Assembly: GCA_001797365.1 (NCBI GenBank)
Contig: MGPH01000011.1
Location: 20,402 to 84,401, forward strand
Direction: 5' to 3'
DNA: 64,000 bases
Source of the DNA: Deltaproteobacteria bacterium GWA2_45_12
GTDB taxonomy: Bacteria; UBA10199
How positions within the stretch are numbered: position 1 is the first letter of the stretch; each line of letters opens with the position of its first letter. Below the pieces are notes generated by a model, which saw nothing but the letters and a program-made list of their open reading frames with translations, searched no databases and was not told the DNA's origin. Shown in pieces: positions 7,361 to 58,428 of this stretch. Both the position numbers and the translations under genes were made by a program.

Positions 7361-8566
7361 TCATTTAAAAAAAACCCTCTTAAACTTCCTCTTCCCCACC
7401 TGCAAAAGATACTCGCCCTTGCATTCAAGCTTCATCATGGGATCGGAAATTTTCTTTTCGTTGACTGACACCCCCCCTTGGGTGACAAGGCGTCGCGCTT
7501 CGCTATTGCTTGGGGTAAGAGAAAGTTCCGTCAAAAGAGTCTGAAGCCCCCTGGGCTCAGAAGAGACGGGCAGAGTCACCTCTTCGATATCCGAAGGCAA
7601 CCCGTGCTTAGAAAAAACCTTGGCAAATTCCTCTTCCGCTTTATCAGCTTCGGACCGGCTATGAAAACGGGCCACGATCTCTTTGGCCAAATCGGTTTTT
7701 ACTTTTTTTGGATGAAGCCCCCCACTGGTTACAGCCTGTTTCATTCCCTGTATTTCCTGCAAAGACTTTGAGCTAAGCAACTCATAATAGCACCACATCA
7801 GATCATCGGTGATGGACATGACCTTGCCAAAAATATCTTTCGGCGATTCTTTGATGCCGATGTAATTGTTGTAGGACTTGCTCATCTTTTGCACACCGTC
7901 AGTGCCTACAAGAAGCGGCATGGTCAAAACGATTTGCGGGGATTGGCCGGATCTTTTCTGAATGGTACGGCCCATGAGAAGGTTAAATTTTTGGTCCGTC
8001 CCTCCCAATTCTACATCTGCCTTGAGTACCACCGAGTCATGGGCTTGAAAGAGCGGATAGTAAAATTCGAGAATGGAGATATCATGCCCCGCCTTGAATC
8101 TTTTTTTGAAATCATCCCGTTCCAGCATGCGAGCCACCGTTTGTTTGGAACCAAGCATGGTCAATTCCATGGAAGACATTTTGTCAAACCATTCACTGTT
8201 GAAACGCACCTCGGTTTTGGCCCGATCAAGAATCTTAAAAACCTGATCTTGATACGTTTTAGAATTCTTCTGAACTTCCTCTTTCGACAATCCGGGCCTT
8301 GTTTCAGAACGCCCCGTCGGATCCCCAATGGTTGCCGTAAAATCACCGATCAGAAAAACAACCTGATGCCCCAGCTCCTGAAATTGCCGCAGTTTATGCA
8401 AAAGCACCGTATGCCCCAAATGCAAATCGGGCGCTGTTGGATCAAAGCCCGCTTTTACACGCAAGGGCTTCCCCAGTTTAAGCTTTTCGATAAGCCCTTC
8501 TTCTTCAATAAGCTCAACGACTCCCCGTTTAATAACCTCTAATTGTTTTTCAACAGAAATGGACAT
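7361..8566 (-). CDS. tyrS: tyrosyl-tRNA synthetase
   Basis: Class I aaRS with HLGH and KMSKS motifs and a C-terminal S4-like domain. Start placed at MSISVEK (Met-8 of the listed ORF). Confidence 0.85.
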
Positions 8567-9329: not shown

Positions 9330-9520
9330 GGCTAGAAAAAACCCCACCATAAGTCGTGAGAAGCTTATCTTGAACCTTAACTAATTAAGGTGGAACCCGT
9401 TATTACCTCTTTAGGCTTCCTCACAAGGAGGCATGCTCACCAAGGTAAGAGATGGACCCCGTTTTGTCATTGTAAGTTCAAAAAATAATGACGTTCACCA
9501 CGAACCAGGCAGGGTTTGTT
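9330..9520 (-). ncRNA. ssrS: putative 6S RNA (ssrS)
   Basis: ~190-nt non-coding gap between zapA stop (9527) and ygfA start (9318) on the same strand. This is the conserved zapA-ssrS-ygfA synteny. On the minus strand the gap ends in GGTGGGGTTTTTT. Secondary structure not verified. Confidence 0.45.
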
Positions 9521-14357: not shown

Positions 14358-14681
14358 CTACATCACCGGATCCAACGCTCCCACAGGTTCAGGAGATTTA
14401 GAAGGAAGATAAACCAAAACGGGATCAATGGGTTCTATTGGTTTGGAATCCGTAGGGACAATCCTAGGATTGTCCCTACCCGCATCAGAATTATTTGTAG
14501 ATTCATTTGACACCGAAGGTTTGTAAGGCAAATCGTAAACCTGTTTGGAAGATGTGTCTTCAGTCTCACCTTCCAAAGAAGGCGGTGTTGTTTGCGGCCC
14601 CACGGGACCAAGGTCTTGGGCGTGAGCGACTCCATTTAAAAATAAAAGGAATGTTATAATTTTTAATATCGATTCATTCAT
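14358..14681 (-). CDS. small secreted hypothetical protein (REP-containing)
   Basis: Signal-peptide-like N-terminus MNESILKIITFLLFLNGVAHA. A family-C REP lies in frame inside it (encoding DNPRIVPT). Pro/Ser-rich. Confidence 0.35.
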   Translation of the reverse strand: MNESILKIITFLLFLNGVAHAQDLGPVGPQTTPPSLEGETEDTSSKQVYDLPYKPSVSNESTNNSDAGRDNPRIVPTDSKPIEPIDPVLVYLPSKSPEPVGALDPVM

Positions 14682-14720
14682 GACGGACCTGTCCCGGTAA
14701 GGGCAATTCATGAATTGCCC

Positions 14721-15818
14721 CTACGATTCCTGAAATATTTTCACATTCTCCAATTCCTTGGCCAAGCTTGGATCTTTCTCTTTTAGCTTGTTCCATTTAA
14801 CTTTGGCTTGAGCCCATTGCTTCTGGTCAAAATCAACAAGGATTTGATTATAGAGACCCCGAGCCTCTTCCGAATTAAGGGTGCTTACTTTCGCATAAGC
14901 ATTCTCCGCTTTTTCGTATTGCTTTAAATTACGATATAAATTGCCTTCGATCAGCCACAAATCACTTGAATCCCTTACCGCTCTTGCCTTATTTATCCAA
15001 AATAAGGCCCCGTTGGTATCATTGTTTTTGGCATAGACCATGGCTAGCTGCTTCATGAGCAATTCATTGTATCCCCCCATCTCCAAGGCTTTGCGGTAAG
15101 ACTCACTGGCTTCCACCAACAATCCCATTTTTTCATAACAAAAACCCAAATTATGCAGGACAAAAACATTCTCCTGTCCCATGGCACGCATTTTTTTATA
15201 AACTTCGATCGCTTGGGGATAATGGTGAAGATCGCGATACACGTTCCCCAAAAGCCCCAACACTTGCAGATTTGTGGGAGCATGCGCTATCCATTGGGCA
15301 AGATAATTCAAGGCCTGATCGTTCTTCCCTGCTTCCCTGGCCAAAATTGTTTTGGATTTAAGAGAATCAAGAGTTTCTTCAATTTTTATTTCAAAGCGGC
15401 GGCTTAATTCAGGTTGTGAAATAAGTTTTTTGGACCAGTCGGCATAATCACTTCTTAATCCTATCACATGAATCACTTCCCCTTGGGGGCCCTTGTTTTC
15501 AAAAACAACCCGATGGATAGTCAAAGCGGGAAACAAAATTCCTTCAGCCTCAAAAACCATTTTTCTTAAATCTTCTTCGGAAATCAAAGAGTCCTGCAAA
15601 ATTATTTTTGCTTCAAGCGGGAATAATTCAAAAACAAAGAGCCGGAACAATTTTGCTGCAAGATCCGTTTTTATTTTTTCATCGGATACCGTTTGAGGAG
15701 TTTCTTTTATCGGCTCTGCCTGTTTTTGATGTGTGTTTTGAGCTTCATCAAACCACCAATCTTGGAGACGGGCACACCCACAAAACCAAACAAAAAAAAG
15801 GATCCAAAACCATTTCAT
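14721..15818 (-). CDS. TPR-repeat lipoprotein
   Basis: Start at MKWFWILFFVWFCGCA (lipobox-like). Multiple TPR-like helices (AL.YL.QWIA, LG.VY..L..Y..A...Y). Confidence 0.6.
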   Translation of the reverse strand: MKWFWILFFVWFCGCARLQDWWFDEAQNTHQKQAEPIKETPQTVSDEKIKTDLAAKLFRLFVFELFPLEAKIILQDSLISEEDLRKMVFEAEGILFPALTIHRVVFENKGPQGEVIHVIGLRSDYADWSKKLISQPELSRRFEIKIEETLDSLKSKTILAREAGKNDQALNYLAQWIAHAPTNLQVLGLLGNVYRDLHHYPQAIEVYKKMRAMGQENVFVLHNLGFCYEKMGLLVEASESYRKALEMGGYNELLMKQLAMVYAKNNDTNGALFWINKARAVRDSSDLWLIEGNLYRNLKQYEKAENAYAKVSTLNSEEARGLYNQILVDFDQKQWAQAKVKWNKLKEKDPSLAKELENVKIFQES

Positions 15819-15987
15819 ATCTTTGTTTGTATACAGCACTTTTGCGTCCTTGCCAAATGGGGAGACAAACCCCCAATAAGTACCCCCCGAAGTCAAAAAA
15901 CCCCCAACCCCAGGCAAGCCAAGCTTCCTATAATAAAAAAATACTTAATAATTACATATATTTAGATTTGAATTCTCCCTAAGTTTT

Positions 15988-16003
15988 TGGCACTGGGTTT
16001 GCT
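15988..16003 (+). promoter_or_regulatory. sigma-54 (RpoN) -24/-12 promoter
   Basis: TGGCAC-TGGGT-TTGCT matches the TGGCAC-N5-TTGCW consensus. It lies ~50 nt upstream of the 16054 ATG, which has a strong RBS (AAAGGGGAA). Confidence 0.55.
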
Positions 16004-16053
16004 ATTAAACATAACGGACGCATGTATTTTTTTTAAAAAAAGGGGAATTTTTT

Positions 16054-18159
16054 ATGACGCAAGCCATCCACAATGATTCAAACAGAAACTCCGCCACTGA
16101 TTCCGACTACGCCCATACAGATTCTGCGCGTATCAAAAACCTGGGTACCGATGAAAAACGTGTGGCCCGAAGAGATGCCAGCCAGGATTTACGCACGGTA
16201 AACCGGGCCATCCGTGAATTAGAAAACAAGGATTCAGCCGACCAAGCCCGTCGTGAAGCGCTGGAAGAATTAAAAAAAGATATCGAGACTTTTCTTAACG
16301 AACTCACCGAAGCCACGCGTGCTGATCGGGAAAGTGAAAGTGGTGTGGACACATCGGAAGTGGACACAACCACCACCGAAGCTGAAGAAAAATATCCCGT
16401 GACTGTTGGCCCCAATGGGGAAATCGCCCAGGATTTTACCAATGGGGATGATATCCATGTAACAGCCGCTGATTCAACCGAAGACAGGACCTATATTTTA
16501 AATCCAGCCGATCCTGCCCCAGTGCCTGGAGAAGATCCCCAAGAAGCTCAAAAAACACTGGAGCAAAGACTTATTGATGATGGAGTAATTGATCCTGAAA
16601 CAAAGGAAGTGATTCAAGATGTAAATGGAGATGGCGTTCTTACCGAAGCTGACATCGAAGCATATAAAGCAAAAAACAGCCTTGATACAAATTCCAATCT
16701 CGAACAACGCCAAAAAATAACTTTTGATGGCGGTGGAAAAACCAAACTAAGTATTGCTTCCATTGATGAGGGAAATAAACAGCTAACGGTTCGAATTGAA
16801 AACCTTGAAACGGGAGTCATTACTTTTCAAACCATTGTCAATTATGACAAAGCTTCCATTATCTGGTCCAATGCCGAAGTGGATCGTGACGAATTATTGG
16901 CCCTTCCTGAAAATCTGAAAAAAATTATGTCCATTGATAACGGGGCGACCACCATTAGCGCCAATGTGGAAGAATCCGAAGGTGAAGGCAAAGAACTCGA
17001 TGTGACTCGTTCAAACGGCTACAAAGCAGCCACCTCTGATGCGGCCTTTGATGCAAGCCGAAACATGTGGACCATGGCCTCTCGTACAGATTTAAGACCC
17101 TATTGGAAGGAAGCCATTGAAATTTTCTACCAGTTTTACACAAACAATCCCAAGGGGGACTGGAAAAAAGAATTCACCGATAAAATACTGAAGAAATGGG
17201 ACGAAGCCGGTCTTTTGGGTGCCGATAGAAACAACCTTATCATTAGCATGGTGATGACCATGTTCCATTCCACTTCCAAGGAAGTGTTCAGCAGTTTTGC
17301 AGGACCCCTTGTTGAACTTTTTGAAAACCAACTCATGGCCGATTTTGAAGTAATTGATGGAAGAACCAACAAGGCTCAAAAGGACGCCCAAGGAAATATT
17401 GTCATGCGTCATTGGAAAGATCACGAGTCGGCAAGCTATAAAACCGTCATCCTGCTTCTGGAATATCAAACCGGTGGCGGGCAATTTGGGGGTGCCTTAG
17501 CCGCATACGAGCTATTCACCACCAATATTTTGGGCTCGGATGATCCGATCCATCCTGAATCTGAAATACAACGAGGTCGTTGGTGGGATACCCAAACCAA
17601 TAAAGCAGCCCTCGATAAATTTAAGAACTTGCTCAAGGAAAAAGGCAGCGAGATCCCTGACAGTATTAACAAGGTCAGTGCCATGGAAGACACCATGGCC
17701 AGTTCCGAAATGGTTGATTTTGACCAAAAAGACTACGAATCGGTTTACGAAAACCTTGACCTTTACGTCGCAAATTATTGCTGGGATAAAGATGATGTCG
17801 AAGACACAGTGGCCAGCGCCAACAATGAACAAATCGCAAAATTCCAGGAATACTATGAACCAAAAATAGATAGTCTCCTGCAGGCAATCATCACGGATGA
17901 ACCCATGCCCGCCGCCCATATTGTGGCCAAACTCGAAGCGGCCATGAGCGCTCTGGTTCAAACCGATGGAAAAACTTCTTTGGGCGTTCTGGCTGCCATG
18001 TTTTTAATTATTATGGATGGCTCAAAACCCCAAATACTGAACAGCCTAATGAAAGTCCCTGGCTTTAAGGAAGAAGTGAAAGGCTGGCTTGAGGGCTTTG
18101 ACAGTTCATATCAGTTCTACAACCCCGTCATGGAAATTTTAAACAGAAACTATCAATAA
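16054..18159 (+). CDS. large acidic hypothetical protein, paralog A1 (701 aa)
   Basis: No signal peptide or TM segment by eye. N-terminal coiled-coil/low-complexity region. Shares conserved blocks with the next ORF (IENLETGVITFQT vs FENIESGEVCFKT; KPQILNSLMKVPGF vs KPQFLNALLRIPSF). No recognised domains. Confidence 0.7.
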   Translation: MTQAIHNDSNRNSATDSDYAHTDSARIKNLGTDEKRVARRDASQDLRTVNRAIRELENKDSADQARREALEELKKDIETFLNELTEATRADRESESGVDTSEVDTTTTEAEEKYPVTVGPNGEIAQDFTNGDDIHVTAADSTEDRTYILNPADPAPVPGEDPQEAQKTLEQRLIDDGVIDPETKEVIQDVNGDGVLTEADIEAYKAKNSLDTNSNLEQRQKITFDGGGKTKLSIASIDEGNKQLTVRIENLETGVITFQTIVNYDKASIIWSNAEVDRDELLALPENLKKIMSIDNGATTISANVEESEGEGKELDVTRSNGYKAATSDAAFDASRNMWTMASRTDLRPYWKEAIEIFYQFYTNNPKGDWKKEFTDKILKKWDEAGLLGADRNNLIISMVMTMFHSTSKEVFSSFAGPLVELFENQLMADFEVIDGRTNKAQKDAQGNIVMRHWKDHESASYKTVILLLEYQTGGGQFGGALAAYELFTTNILGSDDPIHPESEIQRGRWWDTQTNKAALDKFKNLLKEKGSEIPDSINKVSAMEDTMASSEMVDFDQKDYESVYENLDLYVANYCWDKDDVEDTVASANNEQIAKFQEYYEPKIDSLLQAIITDEPMPAAHIVAKLEAAMSALVQTDGKTSLGVLAAMFLIIMDGSKPQILNSLMKVPGFKEEVKGWLEGFDSSYQFYNPVMEILNRNYQ

Positions 18160-18167
18160 AATAAATT

Positions 18168-20441
18168 ATGGGCATCGAAAATACATCCAACCGAAACGAA
18201 ACATTTAATGTCGACTATAAACAGGCCGACAGTATTGACCTGCAAGGAAAAACGCGTGAAGAATTACGTGCGGCCAAGCGTGAAGCCTTAAACGACAAAA
18301 AAGACCTTCAAAAATACAAGCGCGACTTGGAACGCTTGGAACACAATAGCGAAATTGAGCGCAAGATTGATGAAATTGAAAAAATAATTGCCGCCGATGA
18401 AGCCTTTTTGGAAGACTTGAATGCCGCCATTGACGGTTTGCGTAATGATAGTGAAAACTTGGGCGTTGACACAAGTACCGCCGAAAGCACCCCCGAAGCC
18501 CCACGCACCGATTATAAAGATGGATCCACAGCAAGCATTAACACCATGGGGGACCAAAATATCCAACTGCGCCCTTTTGCCACCAACCCCTTGCTGACAG
18601 AAAAATCGGATACAGATTATTTAAAAGAACGCGGCATTTTGGATGAAAACGGCCACCTCATGCCCGGCAAAACAGTCAAAGATTATGAAAATGCCCTTGA
18701 AACCCGCCGCTCGGATGAACAAACCCAGCTGCAAATGATCAATATTGCCTTCCCTCCAAAAAAATATACTGCTGAAGAACTGACTTTAGAAAATGCCGAA
18801 GCCGCCGTGAATGGGGACCGTCATTATATTGAGATGAGCTTGGCCAGTTATGATGCCGCAACGGGTGCCGTTACTTTTCGTTTTGAAAATATTGAATCGG
18901 GGGAAGTGTGTTTTAAAACTTTTGACAATCTCAAATATGCCTCCATCCTTGTAGACACCAATGCTGTAAAAATCAACAACAACCCCGGTGACCCTGAAGA
19001 AGTATGGAAAAAAGTGAGTGCCGGTGGAAAGCCGGTCATTGAAACAGCCTCTACGCTCACTTCCGATCAAAAACATGGTTTGTATGCCGGCTTTGATACG
19101 GCAACCAGTGATGCCAGTTTTGAAGAAGCTTTAAAACTGGGCATTAACGGCGGTCAAGACACCAGTGATGCAACAAAGGCCAAACTGAAGGATATCAGAA
19201 ACCAGGCTGTTGCCTTGATGATCGACTTTGCCAATGGAGATATTCCCGGCATCACCAACCTGGTTGACTTGTGGAATAAAAAGATAAAACCTTTAATGGA
19301 GGAAGCAGGACTTAATGCCTATGACCAAGGGCAGTTTGTCATTGTCTTATTTTACTCCATTTTCTTTAACAGCCCTTCTTACGCTCCCAAATTAAATGAA
19401 CTCGCTTCAATATTTGAAACCATCCTGACTGAAATACCGGCCAAAGAAGCAGACATCAACGCAAACGGATATCCTCTCCTTTTTGAAAACAGCCCTGAAA
19501 TAAAAACGGCCCTCCTGTTCATGAAAACGGGGCTTGGACAAACCGATTCTGATTTTGCTTATCTCTTTGGCCAATCGATGAAAGCCAAAGCCGATGCCCA
19601 AGGCACTGAATATGTGATGGGGCAATGGGAAAATCACGAAACCAATCTTTTAGCCATCAATGCTTATCTTAAAATCAAAAAAGAAAAGTTTTTGGAACAA
19701 CCCAGCGCCAATATGCAGGATGCCCTGACCATTGAAACCGCCATGATTAATGGCGGCGGAGACATCGGTTTGGCAGGAGACGAAAAACAGTACGCTCATG
19801 ATGCCTTAAGTTCCCAGCTAGACTACGCCCACGGAGAACTTAATGACCTCATGAGACAAATACTGGAACCCCTCCTTAAAAAAATCCTGGAAGGCAATTT
19901 AACAGCTTCCGAAATCACAAAATTAATCACAGAAGACTTGAAAAAAGTTCCTGACCTAACAACAGTGAAGGATCGCCGCGACAAAGGCCGGGAAGTGGAT
20001 TGTTCGGTAAATGGAGTGCGGAGGGCTGCTGCAGGAATCCTTTTGAAAGCCTTGTATGGCACCAAGCCCCAATTTTTGAATGCTTTGTTACGCATCCCCA
20101 GTTTTGTCCGTGATATTCAGGTAATATTAAGAACCGTTGAACCTTATGATAACGATTTACCCTTCGAACAAACTTTGGGTGGTAAAGTGGCTCCTGAAAT
20201 GATCAACATTATCCAGGCCCTTGTGCTGGAAAATAAACTGATTGAAGATTCACAAAGACGGGCCCGTACCGCCCTTGACCAAGAAGCCATGGACAAGGAA
20301 CGTGAGGAAGCTGCACGCCGCTCTCAGGAAAATATGGGCGGTTCCCAAACTCCTCCTCCTGAAGAAGCCCCACCCCCAGAACCACGTGGAGCCGAAGCCA
20401 TTGAAGGTGCCGAAGATGAGCGGGAAGCTGAAGGTCCTTGA
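18168..20441 (+). CDS. large acidic hypothetical protein, paralog A2 (757 aa)
   Basis: Paralog of A1. N-terminal coiled coil and a Glu/Pro-rich C-terminal tail. It starts 8 nt after the A1 stop. Confidence 0.7.
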   Translation: MGIENTSNRNETFNVDYKQADSIDLQGKTREELRAAKREALNDKKDLQKYKRDLERLEHNSEIERKIDEIEKIIAADEAFLEDLNAAIDGLRNDSENLGVDTSTAESTPEAPRTDYKDGSTASINTMGDQNIQLRPFATNPLLTEKSDTDYLKERGILDENGHLMPGKTVKDYENALETRRSDEQTQLQMINIAFPPKKYTAEELTLENAEAAVNGDRHYIEMSLASYDAATGAVTFRFENIESGEVCFKTFDNLKYASILVDTNAVKINNNPGDPEEVWKKVSAGGKPVIETASTLTSDQKHGLYAGFDTATSDASFEEALKLGINGGQDTSDATKAKLKDIRNQAVALMIDFANGDIPGITNLVDLWNKKIKPLMEEAGLNAYDQGQFVIVLFYSIFFNSPSYAPKLNELASIFETILTEIPAKEADINANGYPLLFENSPEIKTALLFMKTGLGQTDSDFAYLFGQSMKAKADAQGTEYVMGQWENHETNLLAINAYLKIKKEKFLEQPSANMQDALTIETAMINGGGDIGLAGDEKQYAHDALSSQLDYAHGELNDLMRQILEPLLKKILEGNLTASEITKLITEDLKKVPDLTTVKDRRDKGREVDCSVNGVRRAAAGILLKALYGTKPQFLNALLRIPSFVRDIQVILRTVEPYDNDLPFEQTLGGKVAPEMINIIQALVLENKLIEDSQRRARTALDQEAMDKEREEAARRSQENMGGSQTPPPEEAPPPEPRGAEAIEGAEDEREAEGP

Positions 20442-20517
20442 CCCGGTCATCAAGACATGAAAAAATATCTTTTGTGACAAGGAGATTAAAATTACCAATT
20501 AAAAACATGAGGTTGCA

Positions 20518-22599
20518 ATGAAAAGTTCCCTTTCTTCTTTATTCTCTCCTTTCATTATTTTTATCAGTCTTCTGACAGCGTGTGCTGAAGCTGTTGTTCC
20601 AACCCCTCCCCCCGCCCCTCCTACTTTAAATATTAGTGGGGAAGCTGTGAGTGACTACACTTTAAGTTTTGTAGCCCCTGATTTTAACGGAGAGGCCCCT
20701 TACTATAAACATACCGAAACCATCGTTTTAAGAAATATTGGGGAAGAAATCCTCACCATCAACAACATCACCATGGACGATTTTAGTGGAGCCAAATGCG
20801 AATTTTCTTTTAATCCTGATGTTAATGACGCTGATTCCGTCACACGATGTTCCAACCCACCCATTGACATGGGCCTACCTCAACATCTTGAAGCGGGACA
20901 ATCCATTGCGTTTGATGTGACCTACACCCAGGACAATTTCGGAAATTTCTCCACAAGCATTGTTATTGAAAGTAATGACCCTGATTTTCCTACTCAGACT
21001 ATTAATGTCACATCTGAAAATTCAGGGTTGGGACAGGCTGAAAGCCCCTTAAGAGCCGAAGAACCGGCACCCAGACAAGCCCACCCAAGAATGGTACTTA
21101 ATCACCATCAGCTTGACTTTGGACATGTTCTTGTAGGCAATCAAATTAACCAACTTGTTTGTATCTTCAACCGTGGGGAAGCTCCTTTAAATATACTAGG
21201 CATCAGATTTTTACCCGAAGGGGAAGGTGCCAACAATCAATATGAATTCCTCCATGTACATTGGATACCCTCTGTCATTCCAGCACCACAGGGATGGGGA
21301 TCTGGAAGATGTCCCATTGATATTCAATATCACCCCAATGTGGTAGGAAATCATAATACAGCCATCGAAATTGTCAGTGATGACCCCATCAATCCTTTGT
21401 TAAGACTTCCCATATTGGGAACCGGGGTCCGTGATAACCCGCAACCACCTCAACCTGCTCCTCAGATGTATGTTTATCCGAGACAAGTCTCTTTTGGAAA
21501 AATTGGCGTGGGTTGGACAAGAACTATTGAAATTACAATCCGCAATCAAGATGCTGGCGTTTTGAGTATACAAGAAATTAGCCTGGCACCAGCAGGTGAG
21601 GGAATTAACGAGCAATATGAACTCATCAATACCCCCGATGCCTGTCGTAATTTGGAAGAAGATAGCAGTGTTCGTTTCAGCATTCGATATCGGCCGCAAA
21701 TTGTTGGTGAGCACAATACTTCTCTTACCATTGTAAGTAATGACCCCTTGGGACAAAACTTTACCATCCCCGTTACAGGAAACGCGGACATTTGGCCGGA
21801 AATTTCTGTGAACACCCAACGCATCAATTTTGGCCATGTAACCCCTGGCAATGCAAGCGACCCTTATACTATTAGAATACGAAGTGACGGTCCCGGGCCC
21901 TTGACCTTACAAAATATAATCCTGACCGCCGAGGCACCAGCCCCCAACAACAACCAATATCAGCTTGATAATATTCCGCTGGAGTGGCCACTGATCCTTG
22001 CCCCTAGAACAGAGCTTGAATTAAACCTTACCTATCTTCCCCAGGTTTATGGAAGCCATAATACCTTCCTTGTCATTTCAAGTGATGATGAAAATGAAAG
22101 CACAATCAGAATCCCCATTTCGGGAAGTGCCAATGCCCGGGAAATTAGTGTTTCAACCGATCAAATTGACTTCGGCGAAGTAAACCAAGGGGCCAACTCA
22201 CCCATTCAAAACATTACCGTGCAAAATGAAGGGAATTTGCCACTCATCCTTCAGAATATCTCTCTTGCCCCGGCAGCTGATCCCATTAATAACCAGTACA
22301 CAATCCATAATATTCCTGCTGCATGGCCCGTTGTATTACCGGCTCACGGACAGCTCATCTTTGGCTTAAGCTATGATCCCGTCATCGTGGGAGAACATGT
22401 AACTTCCATTTCCATTTCAAGCAATGATATCGATGAGCCCATCATCAACATACCCGTCACAGGAACAAGTCGGATCCAAACCGGGCCATCCAAAGAAGAT
22501 CAGGAAAATGATGAACCTTCTAAAAAGCCACCCCCAGAAAAAACCAAACCTCCAAAAACGACTTACCCCCCAACAAACAAGGAAAAATCAAATGGATAA
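20518..22599 (+). CDS. lipoprotein with ~6 tandem Ig-like (ASH / choice-of-anchor-D / DUF1573-like) domains, paralog B1
   Basis: Signal/lipobox ISLLTAC, a PPPAPPTL linker, then repeated ~100-aa modules with the pattern FG.V..G......I.N.G..PL.I..I.L........QY.L.........L......Y.P...G.HNT.L.I.SND...P...IP.TG. Confidence 0.75.
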   Translation: MKSSLSSLFSPFIIFISLLTACAEAVVPTPPPAPPTLNISGEAVSDYTLSFVAPDFNGEAPYYKHTETIVLRNIGEEILTINNITMDDFSGAKCEFSFNPDVNDADSVTRCSNPPIDMGLPQHLEAGQSIAFDVTYTQDNFGNFSTSIVIESNDPDFPTQTINVTSENSGLGQAESPLRAEEPAPRQAHPRMVLNHHQLDFGHVLVGNQINQLVCIFNRGEAPLNILGIRFLPEGEGANNQYEFLHVHWIPSVIPAPQGWGSGRCPIDIQYHPNVVGNHNTAIEIVSDDPINPLLRLPILGTGVRDNPQPPQPAPQMYVYPRQVSFGKIGVGWTRTIEITIRNQDAGVLSIQEISLAPAGEGINEQYELINTPDACRNLEEDSSVRFSIRYRPQIVGEHNTSLTIVSNDPLGQNFTIPVTGNADIWPEISVNTQRINFGHVTPGNASDPYTIRIRSDGPGPLTLQNIILTAEAPAPNNNQYQLDNIPLEWPLILAPRTELELNLTYLPQVYGSHNTFLVISSDDENESTIRIPISGSANAREISVSTDQIDFGEVNQGANSPIQNITVQNEGNLPLILQNISLAPAADPINNQYTIHNIPAAWPVVLPAHGQLIFGLSYDPVIVGEHVTSISISSNDIDEPIINIPVTGTSRIQTGPSKEDQENDEPSKKPPPEKTKPPKTTYPPTNKEKSNG

Positions 22600-23542
22600 A
22601 AAACTTGAAAGAACCAAATTATTGTACACGAGCCTTTCTGCTCCCATGATTATCCTTCTCGGCTGTGCCTACGGTGTTTTACCCACCGGCTGTGCCGAAG
22701 CCGTTATACCCAATCCTCCTCCAGCGCCTCCTACTTTATCCATTCAGCCAAACAATCTGGTTTTCATAGCCCCTGATTTTAACGGAGAAGCTCCCTATTA
22801 CACACATACCGAATCCATTACTCTCAGAAATATTGGGGAAGAAGTCCTCACTATCACCAACATTACAATGGACGATTTAAGCGGAGCTACCTGCGGATTC
22901 TCTTTTGATGCCAATGTAAACAATGCCGATTCCCCCACGCGATGTTCAAACCCACCGCTCGACAGAAATTTTCCGATTGAACTTGAAGCCCAACAATCCA
23001 CTTCTCTTGATGTGACCTACACGCAAGACAATTACGGCAGCTTCAGTACAAGCATTGTTATCGAAAGTAATGACCCTGAGATCCGTACAAGCAGAATCAA
23101 TATTACATCCGAAAATTCAGGATTGGGACAGGCTGAAAATCCTTTAGTCCCAGCACCTGCCCCAGAAGCAGGGTCTCCCGAAATCACGGTATCTCCTTTA
23201 AGCATTGCCTTCGTATCCATACCAACAGGTCGTTCTGCCACGCGGATTGTTACCCTCCGTAACGAGGGAAACGGGCCGCTGCATATAAACAATATTGCGC
23301 TTGCGGCACCGGCGGCTCCTGCTGCCGATGGAAGCAATCAATATCAATTGGCGGGGCTTCCCCCATTTCCTTTTGAGCTTGCTGCCGGAGTGGGCATTGA
23401 ATATTCTTTTCAAATTAATTACCGACCCAATGCCGTGGGGAATCATCAAACCTCCATTGTCATTTCAAGTGATGATGTTGATGAAGCCACTGTCACAATT
23501 CCTGTCACGGGAAATGCAAGGATGAATACAGGGCCTCAGTAA
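22592..23542 (+). CDS. lipoprotein with tandem Ig-like domains, paralog B2
   Basis: Start ATG overlaps the B1 stop (ATGGATAA). Lipobox LLGCAYG. The first ~170 aa are ~75% identical to B1, indicating a recent duplication. Confidence 0.7.
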   Translation: MDKKLERTKLLYTSLSAPMIILLGCAYGVLPTGCAEAVIPNPPPAPPTLSIQPNNLVFIAPDFNGEAPYYTHTESITLRNIGEEVLTITNITMDDLSGATCGFSFDANVNNADSPTRCSNPPLDRNFPIELEAQQSTSLDVTYTQDNYGSFSTSIVIESNDPEIRTSRINITSENSGLGQAENPLVPAPAPEAGSPEITVSPLSIAFVSIPTGRSATRIVTLRNEGNGPLHINNIALAAPAAPAADGSNQYQLAGLPPFPFELAAGVGIEYSFQINYRPNAVGNHQTSIVISSDDVDEATVTIPVTGNARMNTGPQ

Positions 23543-23567
23543 TTTAAGGCCTGTAGGAAAAATCAAT

Positions 23568-23662
23568 GGTATGCACCCCAGGGCAAGCCCTGGACCCAAG
23601 ATTCTCCGCCTAAGGCGGAGGGTTTTGACCCAGCAAGGCTCGTCCCCGAAGCCAACGAGCGT
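23568..23662. repeat. ~98-bp dispersed composite element, family E
   Basis: GGTATGMACCCCAGGGCAAGCCCTGGACCCAAGATTCTCCGCCTAAGGCGGAGGGTTTTGACCCAGCAAGGCKCGTCCCCGAAGCCAACGAGCGTAGGGGA. Other copies at 35657-35758 (same orientation) and 30953-31050 (inverted). Over 90% identical. Contains two hairpins and a T-run. Confidence 0.9.
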
Positions 23663-23676
23663 AGGGGATAAAATTT

Positions 23677-25047
23677 ATGCCTAGAAAAAATAGCTTCTTA
23701 ATTTTTACAGGATTTTTTCTATTGGCTGTGGGAATAAGCCCCGTGGGGCAATCTCGTATTCCCATTCCATCCCAAAAGTTTCCTCAGCAAATTCAACTTA
23801 AAGATCCAGGCCCTGTGCAGGTTCATTTACCACCCGGCCCGCCACCCCCACCCCCCACCAGTTTGATGTTGGGGATATCAATGGATGGTTATGCAAGCCG
23901 TGACACCCCTATAAACGCCGGAATCCGCATCCCCAATATCAATTTTGGGGAAGTGCGCCTTACAAATAGACGCTATGTCAATCTTTACATTCAGAATTAT
24001 GGAGAAGCCCCACTCTTTTTGCAAAGAATCTCACTGAATCCTGCCAATGATCAATACAGATTGGTGTACATCAATAATCGATATGAAGAAATTTCTCTTC
24101 AAGAAATAAGCTGGCCGCTGGTTCTTGAAAACGGACATCGAAGAAGCAGCATTCGATTTCGTCTGAGCTACAATCCCCAAAACCTTGGTGAACATAATAC
24201 GGGAATTATCATACGAAGTAATGATAACGACTTTCCCTCTTTTACCATCCCTGTTACAGCCTCAGCCATAGCGGCTTTACCCGCCAATCTTGTTGTTTAT
24301 GATTCTTACCGTTACACCGTTGGCAGAGGGAGAAGACCCGTTGAAAATATTAATTTTAGGCGAGTTTCGTCAGGAAATACACATAACCAAAGAATTTATA
24401 TCTCTAACATAGGAGAAGCAACATTGAACGTGCAGAGCATTACCTTCGAAAACCCTGATGACGCCCAGTTTCAGCTTCATGTTGACGACATTTATAATCA
24501 TTTAGACGATGATAACAATAACCCCGTTGATGGTTTTGCCCTTCAAGGGCATGACAGGGATGTGGCTTTTATAGTCAGTTTTACCCCGGTAGCTGTCGGA
24601 AATTACAATACAAGCTTGAACATTGTCAGCGATAATCCCGACCAACCCCATTTTTCCATTCCGATTACCGCAGTTTCCGAGGTATGGTCCGTCATGGAAA
24701 TTTCTACAAACAGAATCAATTTTGGGAGTCGTGCTGTAAACACAGACAGCGACATTTTTACCGTCACCATCGGTAACACGGGTCCGGGACCCTTAAGTAT
24801 CTCCAACATTACCCTGGCCCCGCCAAACGCCGGGGCACGTGATTCCCGTGCCGAATACCAGCTCTATGATCTGCCCATTCAATGGCCACTGATTGTTGAG
24901 GCCCATAGTCAAACAACCTTTGGCCTTAGTTTCAACCCACGAACATGGGGTCGCCATGACACCGCCATTTCCATTACCAGTAATTCAGACAGGGAACCCA
25001 ATCGAATTATTCGTGTCACAGGCTGGGCAGAACAACAGAATCCTTAA
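23677..25047 (+). CDS. secreted protein with tandem Ig-like domains, paralog B3
   Basis: Signal peptide, a poly-Pro stretch (PPGPPPPPPT), then the same repeated module signature (NTGPGPLSISNITLAP...QYQL...G.HDTAISITSN). Good RBS (AGGGGA). Confidence 0.75.
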   Translation: MPRKNSFLIFTGFFLLAVGISPVGQSRIPIPSQKFPQQIQLKDPGPVQVHLPPGPPPPPPTSLMLGISMDGYASRDTPINAGIRIPNINFGEVRLTNRRYVNLYIQNYGEAPLFLQRISLNPANDQYRLVYINNRYEEISLQEISWPLVLENGHRRSSIRFRLSYNPQNLGEHNTGIIIRSNDNDFPSFTIPVTASAIAALPANLVVYDSYRYTVGRGRRPVENINFRRVSSGNTHNQRIYISNIGEATLNVQSITFENPDDAQFQLHVDDIYNHLDDDNNNPVDGFALQGHDRDVAFIVSFTPVAVGNYNTSLNIVSDNPDQPHFSIPITAVSEVWSVMEISTNRINFGSRAVNTDSDIFTVTIGNTGPGPLSISNITLAPPNAGARDSRAEYQLYDLPIQWPLIVEAHSQTTFGLSFNPRTWGRHDTAISITSNSDREPNRIIRVTGWAEQQNP

Positions 25048-28229: not shown

Positions 28230-28514
28230 CTACGTTTTTTTAAAAAACGCCTCCAATTTTTTCCTGGCTTCAGAGACAGGATCCTGTTGTAGGGGCGCTG
28301 CTTGCTGCGCCCCCACGAAATATTCGCAAAAATTGAATTTTTCTTTATCCACCACACGATCAGCCTGGGGTTCACGGCATTCATTGTAGGCCGCACGATC
28401 ATAAAAACCGCAATTAAGACAAATGTGGGCATCCCGCCCACAATGGTCACACACGTCGCGGAAGCCGGGTTTTTCCGAAATCGTGTCTTCTTTTTTGCAG
28501 AAAAAACAAAACAT
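28230..28514 (-). CDS. small Cys-rich (zinc-ribbon-like) hypothetical protein
   Basis: 94 aa with CFFC..x..CDHC..x..CLNC..x..C pattern. Flanked by family-C REPs and contains a family-A REP in frame. Could be REP-generated noise. Confidence 0.3.
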
Positions 28515-30943: not shown

Positions 30944-31080
30944 AATTTTTTATCCCCTACGCTCGTTGGCTTCGGGGACGCGCCTTGCCGGGTCAAAACC
31001 CTCCGCCTTAGGCGGAGAATCTTCCAGGGCTTGCCCTGGGGTTCATACCGTTGATGGGCGCGGCAAGCGGCGCCCCTACA

Positions 31081-34494: not shown

Positions 34495-35654
34495 AATTTT
34501 GTACCAAAAATCAAATTCTCACAATATTCCCTGGCCCAACGGTCTGCTTCCAAAAGGACTTCCAAAGAGGCCACTTCTTGGGGAATATGCGCATCAAGAA
34601 CCAAGCTTATCAGCCGTATCATCTCCAGAAAAGCTATTTTCTTTTTTAAAAAAGCCGCAACAACAATTTCGTTGGCTGCATTCAAAACTGCGGGATAGGT
34701 CTTTCCTTTCTTGGCCACCTCAAACGCAAGTTTAAGGGAAGGAAATTTTTCCATGTCAGGCTTTAAAAAAGTCAATTGCCCCAAGCTTGCCAAATCAAGG
34801 GGAGCCACCCCTGTTTGGAAGCGTTCCGGAAAACTTAAGGCATACGCAATGGGGACACGCATGTCCGGTAAACCCATGTGGGCCATGACCGAGCCGTCTT
34901 GGTAGGAAACCATTGAATGAATAATGCTTTGCGGATGCACACACACATCAATTTTATCCAGGGGCATATCAAACAACCATCGGGCTTCCATCACCTCTAG
35001 CCCCTTGTTCATCATGCTGGCCGAGTCAATCGTGATTTTGGCTCCCATACTCCAATTGGGATGTTTAAGCGCTTCCTCCACTGTAATTTTCGAAAAATCT
35101 TCACGGGGTTTATTTAAAAAAGGACCCCCCGACGCCGTTAAAACAAGTTTTTGGACATCTTCCTTTTTTCCTGCCTGCAAACATTGAAACAGGGCTGAAT
35201 GCTCACTATCAACCGGGAAAATAGTCCCACCGTATTTCTTTTTTTCACGGCTCATCAGTTCACCGGCAATGACCATGCTTTCTTTATTGGCTAAGGCCAC
35301 TGTCTTTGAAGCTTGGAGCGCCGCCAAGGTGGGCAAAAGCCCCGCAGCCCCGACAATAGCCGAAACCACGGTATGAACCTCGGGCAAAGTGGCAATGCTG
35401 ACCACCCCATCCGAACCAAATAAAATTTCCGGAGATTTTGGGCCCAAAATTTTCTTTAATTTGTAAACTTCAGCTTCTGATTTAACAGAAACAACACGAG
35501 GGGAAAAAGCGTTGATCTGTCGCGCCAACACTTCAATATTGGAACCTGCCGCCAATCCAACAACCTGAAATTTGTCAGGATGCCTGGCCACAAAATCGAG
35601 TGTAGAAACACCGACTGAACCCGTGGAACCCAAAATTGAAATTTTTTTAATCAT
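34491..35654 (-). CDS. dxr: 1-deoxy-D-xylulose 5-phosphate reductoisomerase
   Basis: Start at MIKKISILGSTGSVG. 388 aa. The listed 56-aa N-terminal extension is encoded by a 98-bp repeat. Confidence 0.85.
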   Translation of the reverse strand: MIKKISILGSTGSVGVSTLDFVARHPDKFQVVGLAAGSNIEVLARQINAFSPRVVSVKSEAEVYKLKKILGPKSPEILFGSDGVVSIATLPEVHTVVSAIVGAAGLLPTLAALQASKTVALANKESMVIAGELMSREKKKYGGTIFPVDSEHSALFQCLQAGKKEDVQKLVLTASGGPFLNKPREDFSKITVEEALKHPNWSMGAKITIDSASMMNKGLEVMEARWLFDMPLDKIDVCVHPQSIIHSMVSYQDGSVMAHMGLPDMRVPIAYALSFPERFQTGVAPLDLASLGQLTFLKPDMEKFPSLKLAFEVAKKGKTYPAVLNAANEIVVAAFLKKKIAFLEMIRLISLVLDAHIPQEVASLEVLLEADRWAREYCENLIFGTKL

Positions 35655-35778
35655 CAATGGTATGAACCCCAGGGCAAGCCCTGGACCCAAGATTCTCCGC
35701 CTAAGGCGGAGGGTTTTGACCCAGCAAGGCGCGTCCCCGAAGCCAACGAGCGTAGGGGATGAATTCTCTGGAGATTTT

Positions 35779-45893: not shown

Positions 45894-46055
45894 CTCAACA
45901 AGTTATTTTTAAAACTTCACGCAAACATTCGATAAGCAAAGAAGATGCCAAAGCAGATTTAAAGATAAGCTATTGAAAAATATGGTGGAGAAGGAACAGT
46001 GCGAGATTTTACTTCAAGACAATCGTCCGAAAATAGGACGGTGGGGGAGCTTGGA

Positions 46056-47561
46056 TTATATCCCCTCAGCCGTATCGTATTCCTTGTGTTCCTTGCCGTC
46101 GAAGGCGTAGATTTTGAAACGATCGGAAGCGCGGGTTTCAATGAGGACGGGACGTTTCCAGAGGACATGGAGATTTTTTAAAACCTCCTTGGCGTAGGGT
46201 TCATCTAGCTCAACCCCCTCGTATTTGTGCTTGAGCATGAGCTCAGTACGATTGGAATGGTTGGCATCGACTACTTCAATCATGGGTTGGCCAAAATTGG
46301 TAAGTTGAGAAAGGAGTTTCGCCTTGATTATTTTAAAGTCTCGGGAGGAAATTTCGTGCCTGGCATTTTGTTTGTTGTAGTCGAAGGCAAAAAGTTTGTA
46401 CTGTTCACAGAATTCTTGGGTTAAAAAAGTGTCCAAAAAAGTAACATCATTGTAGATTTTTCTTACTTCAAAAATTTTCTGCCGCCCCAACCCCAAATTT
46501 TTGTTCCAGCGCGCTTTTTCAACCATGTTGTCACACTCGTCATATTCCTTCCCGAATTTCCCCTTGTTCCATCGGTCTTCAATATCACGAAAAAGCTCAA
46601 TCCCGATTTTATAAGGGTTTAACCGGCCCGGCTGCATGGAAACCGTGCCTGAATGATGGTCGGCAAAATCAATCACCTCGGCATCGGTCAGCGCCTTGCC
46701 CGTCATGATTTTGCTGTGCCAGTAGCTGGCCCAACCTTCGTTCATGATCTTGGTCTGGGCCTGGGGGGCAAAGTAATAGGCTTCATCACGAATAATGGCC
46801 AACACATCCTGTTGCCAACGTTCCAAGGGGCCAAATTGCAGCAAAAACAACATGACATCCCGGTAAGGTTCCAGGGGAATTTTTTCGTTTTTCTTCGATT
46901 TTTCGAGAAAATTTTTCTTTTGTTCATCCAGAAAATCTTTCGGGTTTACAAATTTATCAAGGTACTGATGTTCGGTGTGAAGCCTTGTAATGGGGATTTC
47001 GGGGTCTTCCTCCTCACCATCCTCGTTTAAAACCGGCGGTTTTGGAGTCTCGAAACGCTTGATCAGCGGGGAATAAATATCGATGAGATTGTCGATAGAA
47101 AGGCATACGTCAATGAATGACTCAACCCGCTCATACCCGTATTTATTGACATAGCGCTGTATCTTCGTCTTATGGTTGGCCATGATGTCCACCATGTGCC
47201 GGTTGGTATGTGCAAAAAAGATGTTGTTCTTGAAAAAATCGCAATGCCCAAACACATGGGCCATCACCATTTTTTGGTCGACAACGGAGTTACTGTATAA
47301 AAGATAGGCGTAGCAAGGGTCGTTGTTAATGACCATTTCATAAATTTTGGAAAGCCCATAAGCATAACTTTTGGAAAGTTGCTCGTATTCCATGCCAAAA
47401 CGCCAATGGGGATAACGATTGGGAAACCCCCCATAGGCAGCGACTTCATTCATTTGCTTGAAGTCGAGCATCTCGAAAATGGTTTCAAAAAAATCCAAAC
47501 CACATTCGCGGGCATATCCCTCAATACGTACACGCCAATTTTCGAGTTCAGGTGATAACAT
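46056..47561 (-). CDS. SpoVR-family protein
   Basis: 501 aa. Third gene of the conserved prkA-yeaH(DUF444)-spoVR/ycgB triad. Confidence 0.8.
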   Translation of the reverse strand: MLSPELENWRVRIEGYARECGLDFFETIFEMLDFKQMNEVAAYGGFPNRYPHWRFGMEYEQLSKSYAYGLSKIYEMVINNDPCYAYLLYSNSVVDQKMVMAHVFGHCDFFKNNIFFAHTNRHMVDIMANHKTKIQRYVNKYGYERVESFIDVCLSIDNLIDIYSPLIKRFETPKPPVLNEDGEEEDPEIPITRLHTEHQYLDKFVNPKDFLDEQKKNFLEKSKKNEKIPLEPYRDVMLFLLQFGPLERWQQDVLAIIRDEAYYFAPQAQTKIMNEGWASYWHSKIMTGKALTDAEVIDFADHHSGTVSMQPGRLNPYKIGIELFRDIEDRWNKGKFGKEYDECDNMVEKARWNKNLGLGRQKIFEVRKIYNDVTFLDTFLTQEFCEQYKLFAFDYNKQNARHEISSRDFKIIKAKLLSQLTNFGQPMIEVVDANHSNRTELMLKHKYEGVELDEPYAKEVLKNLHVLWKRPVLIETRASDRFKIYAFDGKEHKEYDTAEGI

Positions 47562-47623
47562 AGGTGTTCAATGTAGGGGCAGGTCTATGACCTGCCCGAA
47601 TTATGAGCGGTATAAACCCGCCC

Positions 47624-48739: not shown

Positions 48740-48884
48740 AGGTGCTTCACAACAGCAATGCCCCTGTAGTAGGGGCGATCCTTGTGATCGCCCTCGATCC
48801 TTATGATCGCCCTAACGTAGGGACACGGCATGCCGTGCCTCTACACGGGGGCGAATACAAGATTCGCCCCTACATGATTTCAAA

Positions 48885-57515: not shown

Positions 57516-57618
57516 GGAAAAATTTGATGGTTTGACCAAGGCTCATCTCCATGTAAGGGCAATTCATGAATTGCCCTTACAAAAAGGACATACTTAAGCC
57601 AGGTCGAAGGTACCTTTT

Positions 57619-58347: not shown

Positions 58348-58428
58348 AAAAATAAAAAACAACTTTGGCAGGATTAAAACCGATAAATCCCCTGTAAGGG
58401 GACATGAGGGACATTCAGAAATAATGCC

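Follow-up and report, generated by a model that had tools for sequence, protein, structure and literature searches.

Five co-directional genes on the + strand (16054-25047) break up a long minus-strand run of housekeeping genes in the 64,000-nucleotide stretch of DNA analysed here (the window), and raise the question of whether they form a single system. The source organism, named 'Deltaproteobacteria bacterium GWA2_45_12' by NCBI, is uncultivated and comes from aquifer groundwater. The first-pass annotation had treated the five genes as one sigma-54-promoted accessory module, made up of two "giant" acidic proteins (A1 and A2) and three Ig-repeat proteins (B1-B3). The interruption of the housekeeping run is real, as the minus-strand genes scpB, scpA, trpS, an M50 peptidase and a TPR lipoprotein lie on one flank, and truA, asd, leuB, leuA, pssA, psd, ilvN, tsaB, rseP, dxr, cdsA, uppS, frr, pyrH, tsf and rpsB, also on the minus strand, lie on the other. 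The A proteins, at 701 and 757 residues, are large rather than giant. The genes and the region upstream of them are as follows.

15819..16053, no strand: divergent intergenic region between the TPR gene and A1, 235 bp.
16054..18159, + strand: A1, 701-aa acidic orphan protein (NCBI hypothetical protein OGP10372.1).
18168..20441, + strand: A2, 757-aa acidic paralogue of A1 (NCBI hypothetical protein OGP10373.1).
20518..22599, + strand: B1, 693-aa lipoprotein with 5 choice-of-anchor-D Ig modules.
22592..23542, + strand: B2, 316-aa lipoprotein with 2 Ig modules.
23677..25047, + strand: B3, 456 aa, signal peptide and 3 choice-of-anchor-D Ig modules.

A2 starts 8 nt past the A1 stop, the A2-B1 gap is 76 nt, and the B2 start overlaps the B1 stop by 8 nt. 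An earlier B2 start at 22424 has been replaced by the ATG at 22592 (316 aa), with which the public gene calls concur. B3 and truA are convergent, and truA ends 9 nt from B3.

A1 and A2 are paralogues, as had been claimed, since BLASTP aligns them over their full length at 22% identity (E = 2e-22). Neither has a significant Pfam, NCBIfam or PDB sequence match, searches of PADLOC, PHROGs and PDB profiles returned no characterised family, and no matches were found in phages or plasmids. A search of 1.84 billion representative proteins yielded one non-self relative, P0003, which is the A2 orthologue (A2') of a second uncultivated bacterium, represented by contig L081. These searches bear out the claim of a family with no characterised match. 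The A family is new, with the novelty sitting at the protein-family level, and it is confined to a single uncultivated clade; in candidate lineages, orphan pairs occur commonly.

In L081, A2' lies beside an A1 orthologue (A1'), and the pair adjoins the truA-asd-leuB-leuA block, 52 bp from truA, in a seven-gene synteny with the window. No B gene is located between the A pair and truA, and no B homologue was found across the 14-kb L081 locus. Orthologous proteins match with E = 1e-45 (A1/A1') and 3.5e-25 (A2/A2'), as compared to only 1e-4 to 6e-6 for the cross pairs, and the duplication that produced A1 and A2 is older than the split from the L081 lineage. The A orthologues are only 23-25% identical, whereas their housekeeping neighbours are 50-71% identical; the G+C of the pair is host-like in each genome (45% and 35.5%), and the G+C and GC3 of the A/B cluster match those of its neighbours. 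The placement of A1' and A2' beside truA with no B gene between them points to an A pair that is ancestral, vertically inherited and diverging much faster than the surrounding genes. With the same chromosomal position in both genomes and host G+C, the pair is no recent accessory insertion. An A-B partnership is not required, because L081 keeps the A pair without B genes between it and truA, and the B trio is either an add-on or was lost in L081. A single five-gene module is also disfavoured by a sigma-70-like match in the A2-B1 gap and a repeat element that fills the B2-B3 gap, and the evidence does not establish the five as one system, or as a new one. A single comparative genome sets the A pair apart as an ancestral core and the B trio as an add-on specific to this lineage, and corrects the five-gene picture.

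Three non-coding elements bear on how the genes could be expressed.

15988..16003, + strand: sigma-54 (-24/-12) promoter motif TGGCACtgggtTTGCT, an exact TGGCAC-N5-TTGCT.
20438..20466, + strand: sigma-70-like consensus match TTGACC-17-AAAAAT with an extended TG, in the A2-B1 gap.
23565..23668, + strand: structured repeat element of ~105 nt that fills the B2-B3 gap, with three hairpins and the core CTCCGCCTAAGGCGGAG followed by GGTTTTG.

The near-consensus RpoN promoter annotated before the first gene proved to be an exact and well-placed match. The motif TGGCACtgggtTTGCT is the sole exact TGGCAC-N5-TTGCW match in the window, where shuffled sequences lead one to expect 0.10 per 64 kb on both strands. 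It lies inside the 235-bp intergenic region, upstream of and co-oriented with A1, carries the -24 GG and -12 GC at exact spacing, and leaves 51 nt between its -12 element and the A1 ATG. The motif is identical in the same-strain contigs L082, L083, L085 and L086; it was read in GWA2_45_12 contigs, as the L081 contig begins at A1'. In its exact sequence, its suitable distance to the first gene and the A/T-rich tract upstream of it, the motif resembles the RpoN -24/-12 promoters of conditional envelope, motility and stress operons. Unlike those operons, the locus has no activator gene or recognisable dyad nearby, and its A1/A2 products have no assigned function. Neither rpoN nor a gene with a Sigma54_activat domain was found among the scanned window ORFs, no clear activator-binding dyad was found in the TPR gene-A1 intergenic region, and Rfam families gave no match in 15819..16053 at E <= 1. 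Based on the motif, expression of A1 and A2 is probably sigma-54-dependent. The sigma-70-like match may give the B genes a promoter of their own, such matches being no commoner in the A2-B1 region than in shuffles, and no terminator-like fold was found in the A2-B1 gap. The B2-B3 repeat element (fold z = -3.3) occurs in 3 copies in the window at 93-98% identity, the other 2 in housekeeping intergenic regions. An Rfam search gave no credible match to it, and it may function as a partial terminator or RNA-stabilising element.

The B proteins are ordinary members of a known surface-protein class. All three exceed the 45-bit cut-off of NF012200 (choice_anch_D), with 156.4, 62.3 and 88.6 bits for B1, B2 and B3 over 5, 2 and 3 matched stretches, respectively, and the 25.5-bit threshold of the HYDIN/CFA65/VesB-like Ig family PF22544 (108.6, 52.7 and 53.1 bits, respectively). 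The assignment to the choice-of-anchor-D/ASH/DUF1573 type thus holds, with module counts of 5, 2 and 3 in place of the 4-6 proposed. As in other choice-of-anchor-D/HYDIN-VesB-CFA65-like Ig/ASH/DUF1573 proteins (NF012200, PF22544, PF15780, PF07610), a module of ~110-130 residues is repeated in tandem, and as in surface and periplasmic members each protein begins with an N-terminal export signal. Lipoboxes were called by eye and hydropathy scan, as [LVI][ASTVI][GAS]C following positive and hydrophobic regions. By this measure B1 contains ...ISLLTA-C22, with lipobox LLTA-C22, and B2 contains either ...ILLG-C25 or ...LPTG-C34, the latter aligned with the B1 cysteine. B3 has a signal-peptide-like N-terminal region and no cysteine, so it would be secreted or signal-anchored rather than a lipoprotein; of the annotated "lipoproteins or secreted proteins", only B1 and B2 are lipoproteins. 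The Pro-rich linkers that had been described are confined to the stretches that follow the signal peptides and to the junction of modules 2 and 3 in B1. B2 matches modules 1 and 2 of B1 at 50% identity, and B1 ends in a basic Lys/Pro-rich tail. In place of a C-terminal sorting signal, B1 and B2 carry an N-terminal lipid and B3 a plain signal peptide as anchor. The trio is further set apart by a conserved cysteine pair in the first module of B1 and B2, and by identities of only 24-27% to the closest non-self homologues.

The A proteins lack such signals. As annotated, they contain no signal peptide, transmembrane segment or recognisable domain: the maximum Kyte-Doolittle value over 19 residues is only 1.33 in A1 and 1.19 in A2, which argues against a transmembrane segment or signal peptide, and no Sec, Tat or lipoprotein signal is present. 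Both are acidic (pI 4.50 and 4.67), and A2 has an extra acidic, Pro-rich C-terminal tail, so that the C-terminus is not common to the two. The predicted layout of A1 consists of a polar N-terminal motif, a helical hairpin (~32-95), a disordered acidic linker, an EF-hand/dockerin-type loop (189-200), a small beta domain (~220-300) and an all-alpha region (313-700). The domain layouts are weak predictions, because the structure models are unreliable (pLDDT 47 and 49). Across the four A proteins there are 4 cysteines in 2847 residues as compared to 26.8 expected (P = 5.6e-8). The loop D-x-N-x-D-G-x-[IL]-x3-D is found in A1 and A1', as against 0 matches among 13.8k residues of background. A motif scan found no RTX, Walker A, HExxH, GxSxG or WxG motif conserved across the four proteins. 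We propose a provisional family definition from features common to 2-4 of the four aligned sequences (n=2 genomes): ~700 residues, a tandem pair beside truA, the polar N-terminal motif [IV]-x2-3-N-x3-[RH]-N-x5-[DAT]-Y, a helical hairpin, an acidic linker, a beta domain with ENxE[TS]G, and an alpha domain with EAGL..YDQ, G.W.NH.TN and KP..L motifs. Within the N-terminal 95 residues, the paralogues of one genome are 30% identical as compared to 17% for orthologues (Fisher p = 0.005), a signal for which the counts are small, the alignment is uncertain and the A1' N-terminus may be truncated; beyond the first 95 residues, similarity follows orthology. Recent gene conversion of the N-termini is ruled out, as the shared motif is conserved in its amino acids and differs synonymously in its codons.

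The leading reading, to which we assign a probability of about 35%, is of A1 and A2 as a non-enzymatic pair gated by sigma-54. The two would interact via N-terminal helical hairpins that co-evolve and would act at the envelope or surface, with B1-B3 as an add-on. In this mechanism A1 and A2 would be transcribed from the sigma-54 promoter, and both an enhancer-binding activator and a signal should be required for their expression. As no catalytic motif is conserved, they are read as structural or scaffold proteins acting jointly. The within-genome co-evolution of the motif and hairpin points to binding of the hairpins to one another, or to a partner that both share and that is specific to the genome, and A1 and A2 would form a heteromer. 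A1 orthologues carry one conserved loop of the Ca2+ type. Action in the envelope or outside the cell without a Sec signal is slightly more likely than action in the cytoplasm, because of the cysteine depletion, acidity, dockerin-like loop, rapid divergence and neighbouring surface proteins. B1-B3 may be expressed by read-through from the sigma-54 promoter or have a promoter of their own, and could act as stalks, anchored by lipid, on which something is displayed or tethered, perhaps the A complex; we infer this A-B link, as we do the localisation of A1 and A2. The absence of secretion-system genes from the 64-kb window and L081 weighs against an envelope role. If A1 and A2 act as described, a family without a detectable relative in ~1.8 billion representative sequences would be under tight sigma-54 control in a metagenome-only lineage, and could bring to light either an exported structural module of a new kind or an export signal that is new and signal-independent.

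A role as cytoplasmic scaffold comes close in likelihood to this envelope or surface role. A1 and A2 could possibly be a conditional scaffold, polar organiser or stress/differentiation factor, with B1-B3 an unrelated surface-protein operon that lies downstream by chance. This would agree with the lack of an export signal or transmembrane segment, the predicted mostly alpha-helical and charged character of the proteins, the L081 pair standing against truA with no B gene between, the sigma-70-like match ahead of B1 and the absence of secretion genes nearby. The K/E-rich helical composition is also compatible with cytoplasmic scaffolds, which often evolve fast and contain few cysteines. PopZ, HubP/FimV and DivIVA-type organisers are acidic, lineage-restricted, fast-evolving and Cys-poor proteins with a disordered linker and helical interaction modules. 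A1 and A2 share their acidity, linker, helical modules, lineage restriction, rapid evolution and cysteine poverty, though no sequence or domain relationship to them was detected, and such scaffolds are not typically sigma-54-driven tandem paralogues. Against a cytoplasmic location, the extreme cysteine depletion and dockerin-type Ca loop (Asp at position 12) lean extracellular without being diagnostic, the divergence is far above that of the neighbours, and the conserved polar N-terminal motif resembles a recognition peptide. A1 and A2 could also be substrates of a signal-peptide-independent system encoded elsewhere (for example type I or flagellar type III), which we consider rather unlikely. 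Like T1SS/RTX adhesins, Cys-free acidic T1SS proteins and flagellin/hook-associated pairs, A1 and A2 are acidic, nearly Cys-free tandem paralogues with no Sec signal, a Ca2+-type loop, helical termini and a conserved S/N/T-rich polar N-terminus, and sigma-54 promoters drive some flagellar genes, as they putatively drive A1/A2. However, GGxGxD RTX repeats are absent from all four proteins, and Flagellin_N, Flg_bb_rod and other axial Pfam domains (as in flagellin and FlgK/FlgL) gave no match at E <= 0.1 (A1, A2) or E <= 1 (A1', A2'). Neither the window nor L081 contains an ABC/MFP transporter of the T1SS type, and flagellar and T1SS genes are absent from both loci. In addition, the C-terminus is not shared (A2 having its long extra tail), the predicted 400-residue all-alpha C-terminal region is foreign to both classes, and the N-terminus is Asp-rich, which is atypical of type III signals.

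Rapid divergence could also arise in conflict, if one of the pair were a polymorphic toxin/effector and the other its immunity or chaperone partner, or if the two served in anti-phage defence, and the A2' C-terminus has a sub-threshold match to Colicin_immun (E = 0.0021, 19 bits, cut-off 22). This is very unlikely, as A1 and A2 are full-length paralogues rather than a toxin and a small immunity gene, PADLOC returned 0 families at E <= 1 for A1, A2, A1' and A2', a motif scan found no toxin or nuclease motifs, phage and plasmid matches are absent, and the pair keeps its place in the chromosome and has host-like G+C. That the whole cluster is a recently acquired genomic island is highly improbable. 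The inverted strand relative to the flanks and the differing AT skew (+0.195 over the A genes) would suit it, but the skew arises from codons for D, E, N and K, G+C and GC3 equal those of the neighbours, and there is no integrase, tRNA or flanking repeat. For the A pair, a recent-island origin is largely refuted by its host-like G+C and by the shared locus in L081, a genome whose housekeeping proteins are so diverged.

An extended form of the envelope reading, which we regard as distinctly unlikely, would make A1 and A2 the building blocks of an undescribed sigma-54-induced envelope or extracellular structure, exported independently of Sec via recognition of the conserved polar N-terminal motif and the hairpin. 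Ca2+ would stabilise the two proteins and, in this lineage, the lipid-anchored Ig stalks B1-B3 would tether them to the outer membrane. If true, an uncultivated clade labelled Deltaproteobacteria by NCBI would possess its own, new surface or adhesion apparatus. A minor observation concerns the TPR gene on the far side of the promoter region, which probably starts at the ATG at 15818 (- strand) and not at the TTG at 15917; public gene calls give a product of 365 residues.

The locus holds a real, ancestral and fast-evolving pair of orphan genes, A1 and A2, behind a well-placed sigma-54 motif, and downstream of this pair lies a lineage-specific trio of genes, B1, B2 and B3, for Ig-repeat envelope proteins. 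As the first-pass annotation had described, the five genes are co-directional (16054-25047, plus strand) and lie amid housekeeping genes; genes of this kind on the minus strand account for nearly all others within 40 kb around A1-B3. The features of the locus, with two further copies of a repeat, are as follows:

15988-16003, co-oriented with A1: sigma-54 motif TGGCACtgggtTTGCT, an exact match to the -24/-12 consensus TGGCAC-N5-TTGCW
16054-18159, plus strand: A1, ORF of 701 aa
18168-20441, plus strand: A2, ORF of 757 aa
20518-22599, plus strand: B1, ORF of 693 aa
22592-23542, plus strand: B2, ORF of 316 aa
23565-23668, plus strand: structured element, copy 1, B2-B3 intergenic
23677-25047, plus strand: B3, ORF of 456 aa
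~30948-31055, minus strand: structured element, copy 2, pssA-psd intergenic
35653-35760, plus strand: structured element, copy 3, cdsA-dxr intergenic

The B2 start is placed at ATG 22592, as a signal peptide follows it, the resulting ORF shares 8 nt with the end of B1, and public gene calls use it; a 372-aa B2 ORF from 22424 in the mechanical list is an artefact of a frame that is open upstream. The upstream side of A1 carries ispD, trpG/E, tyrS, a 5-formyl-THF cyclo-ligase gene, 6S RNA, an rluB-like gene, scpB, scpA, trpS, and genes for a small M50 peptidase and a TPR lipoprotein, and the downstream side of B3 carries truA, asd, leuB, leuA, pssA, psd, ilvN, tsaB, rseP, dxr, cdsA, uppS, frr, pyrH, tsf and rpsB. 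The 6S RNA gene (9337-9518, minus strand, 95 bits) adjoins the cyclo-ligase gene, the classic ssrS-ygfA arrangement. All five proteins (OGP10372-OGP10376) are annotated as 'hypothetical protein', and exact look-ups found the same five in the TPA MAG GCA_003501025.1; the contigs derive from groundwater metagenomes. Literature searches on the assembly, the organism and 'choice-of-anchor D' returned nothing relevant, and population variation gave no dN/dS signal because every other recovered contig of the organism is 99.9-100% identical.

The RpoN promoter motif claimed before the first gene is borne out by the exact match, the only one to TGGCAC-N5-TTGCW in the window; dinucleotide shuffles yield 0.10 such matches per 64 kb when both strands are counted. 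The motif sits within the 235 bp between A1 and the divergent TPR gene, with the A1 ATG 51 nt downstream of the -12 element and a GGGG Shine-Dalgarno sequence between them, and this placement makes a chance origin very unlikely. Sigma-54 dependence of A1 transcription itself we only infer, because no convincing activator-binding dyads were found upstream of the promoter and neither rpoN nor an activator gene is present among the window ORFs scanned. The A1 5' region contains no riboswitch or known leader RNA. Across the intergenic region, the divergent TPR gene (14721-15818, minus strand) encodes a protein whose likely true N-terminus, MKWFWILFFVWFCGC..., resembles a lipoprotein signal; its match to the Slam N-terminal TPR family is sub-threshold (E = 0.0019) and weaker than its own generic TPR matches. 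Nearby, 232 bp at 14473-14704, overlapping a 117-aa hypothetical gene (14358-14711), are missing from the UBA-type MAG contig of the same organism (L083/L086, GCA_003501025.1), through a strain-level indel or else a difference in assembly.

Only 8 nt separate A1 from A2, and B1 and B2 overlap by 8 nt, so each of these pairs is almost certainly co-transcribed. Co-transcription of all five genes is possible. No terminator-like fold is present in the 76 nt between A2 and B1, where a sigma-70-like match that includes an extended TG occurs, of a kind no commoner than in shuffled sequence. The 134-nt B2-B3 gap is filled by a structured element of ~105 nt (z = -3.3), with a central GC hairpin followed by GGTTTTG, that may attenuate read-through. 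The element (~105-108 nt, three hairpins, palindromic core CTCCGCCTAAGGCGGAG) occurs in three window copies that are 93-98% identical and stand in both orientations relative to transcription. It has no credible Rfam match, is absent from the related locus described below and from the other fetched loci, and looks like an undescribed dispersed repeat resembling REP or MITE elements, or else a structured RNA.

The two A proteins were correctly described as paralogues lacking a signal peptide, transmembrane segment or known domain. They align over their full length (BLASTP E = 2e-22, 22% identity), are acidic (pI 4.50 for A1 and 4.67 for A2), and contain no hydrophobic segment that fits a signal peptide or transmembrane helix. 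Searches against Pfam (E <= 1), NCBIfam, PADLOC and PHROGs gave no significant match, tblastn against phage and plasmid collections gave none, and comparison with PDB sequences, singly or as a four-sequence profile, was negative or noise. When the A1+A2 profile was run exhaustively with HMMER on 1.84 billion representative proteins, three matches came back: P0003 (697 aa, E = 1.8e-7) and two chimeric pieces of A1 and A2 themselves. No relative turned up when GTDB genomes were pattern-scanned with the A1+A2 alignment, or JGI metagenomes with A2+P0003. A TruA-anchored GTDB search recovered 80 loci (the best 54% identical), none with an A, B or TPR homologue. These searches indicate that A1 and A2 form a new protein family with no detectable relatives beyond one clade. 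The first-pass view that the cluster matches no recognised system holds for A1 and A2. The novelty sits at the level of the protein family and is of moderate interest, because lineages of this sort often carry orphan genes and no mechanism is yet indicated.

The gene for P0003 lies on a Logan contig of 20 kb (SRR33375167; locus L081). P0003 is the A2 orthologue, A2', and is preceded there by the A1 orthologue, A1' (692 aa), which begins at the contig edge. After P0003 come 52 bp and then truA, asd, leuB, a small zinc-ribbon ORF, leuA, pssA, psd and ilvN, in the same order and orientation as in the window. The housekeeping proteins of the two loci share 50-71% identity, A1 and A1' share 25% (E = 1e-45), A2 and A2' share 23% (E = 3.5e-25), and the cross pairs reach only E = 1e-4 to 6e-6. 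This synteny and these identities indicate that the A1/A2 duplication predates the split of the two organisms, that the pair has remained at a single chromosomal site, and that it diverges far faster than its neighbours. A-gene G+C is at host level in both genomes (45% in the window, 35.5% in L081), so we discard a recent island as the source of the A pair; as an account of the whole cluster, such an island is very improbable, and no flanking repeats surround the B trio. In L081 the interval from A2' to truA contains no B gene, and its 14 kb from A1' onward are free of B homologues, which indicates that the B trio is not an obligatory partner of the A pair at this locus; B genes could still lie upstream of A1', beyond the contig edge. 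The proposed five-gene module, with its surface, adhesion or predation role, finds no support in L081, the sole comparative evidence available. The 94-aa Cys-rich, zinc-ribbon-like ORF between leuA and leuB (28230-28514, minus strand; 7630-7917, minus strand, in L081) is 55% identical between the two loci, and the mechanical ORF list joins it to leuB as 484 aa. Its JGI metagenome homologues (35-55% identity) show other synteny: of 25 loci, none is syntenic and none has an A match by HMM or tblastn.

B1, B2 and B3 all exceed the curated thresholds of NF012200 (choice-of-anchor D) and PF22544 (HYDIN/VesB/CFA65-like Ig), with weaker matches to ASH, DUF1573 and Cep192. The description of three multi-Ig lipoproteins stands for the Ig type and for the lipoboxes of B1 and B2; B3 has a signal peptide and no Cys, and the proteins have 5, 2 and 3 modules, respectively, not 4-6. 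B1 carries the lipobox LLTA-C and a basic Lys/Pro-rich tail, and B2, whose lipobox Cys aligns with that of B1, is 50% identical to B1 modules 1-2. The closest non-self homologues are generic choice-of-anchor-D proteins (24-27% identity), and B1-B3 are ordinary new members of a known surface or periplasmic class.

AlphaFold2 models of the A proteins, built from two- and three-sequence alignments, are unreliable (pLDDT 47 and 49), and only their coarse secondary-structure layout was used; Foldseek against the PDB returned nothing below E = 1. The predicted layout begins with a polar N-terminus and a helical hairpin (~32-95), in which hydrophobic residues with heptad spacing can be read by eye, and would continue through a disordered acidic linker rich in T/S/E/D and a small beta domain (~220-300) to an all-alpha region (~313 to the end). 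Both proteins share the polar N-terminal motif I-x-N-x-SNRN-x4-5-DY-x3-DS, and its codons differ synonymously between A1 and A2, which argues that selection on the peptide, not recent gene conversion, has kept it. Within the first 95 residues, paralogues within a genome are 30% identical versus 17% for orthologues (Fisher p = 0.005), a comparison with small counts, an uncertain alignment and an A1' that may lack a few N-terminal residues, and the remainder follows orthology (23.5% versus 19.8%). N-terminal modules that bind one another, or a shared genome-specific partner, could give this pattern.

We tentatively favor, at a probability of roughly 35%, a joint non-enzymatic structural role in which A1 and A2 would act together through their N-terminal hairpins, with expression gated by an activator-dependent sigma-54 promoter, at the envelope or surface and not in the cytoplasm. 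The family conserves none of the Walker A, HExxH, GxSxG, RTX, WxG and CxxC motifs. The envelope location is suggested by rapid divergence, acidity, surface-protein neighbors and Cys depletion, the four A proteins having 4 Cys in 2847 residues versus 26.8 expected from 13.8k residues of neighboring proteins (P = 5.6e-8). It is also suggested by a canonical EF-hand/dockerin-type loop, present once in A1 (DVNGDGVLTEAD, residues 189-200) and once in A1' (DYNNDGRINSKD, residues 172-183), not found in A2 or A2' and without a match in the background set. The main rival, doubtful in itself and almost as likely as the envelope reading, is a cytoplasmic scaffold with unrelated B neighbors; the missing export signal, the lack of nearby secretion genes and the B-free interval between the A pair and truA in L081 speak for it, and Cys depletion, the dockerin-type loop and rapid divergence speak against it. 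Dedicated signal-independent secretion of A1 and A2, T1SS- or flagellar-like, is improbable, and a conflict or toxin pair is distinctly more so.

Elsewhere in the window, a complete operon of prkA, DUF444 (yeaH-like) and spoVR (ycgB-like) occupies 46056-50963 (minus strand). A second sigma-54-like site with one mismatch (TGGCATcttctTTGCT, 45935-45950, minus strand) lies between spoVR and a small HTH gene (45673-45209, minus strand), co-oriented with the latter and ~260 nt upstream of it. An accessory-looking cluster (56670-61581, plus strand), with an ORF6N-domain gene (55505-56089, minus strand) just upstream, encodes a DUF4423 protein of 281 aa, a thrombospondin type-3 repeat protein of 242 aa and a 1050-aa protein with C-terminal PKD domains.
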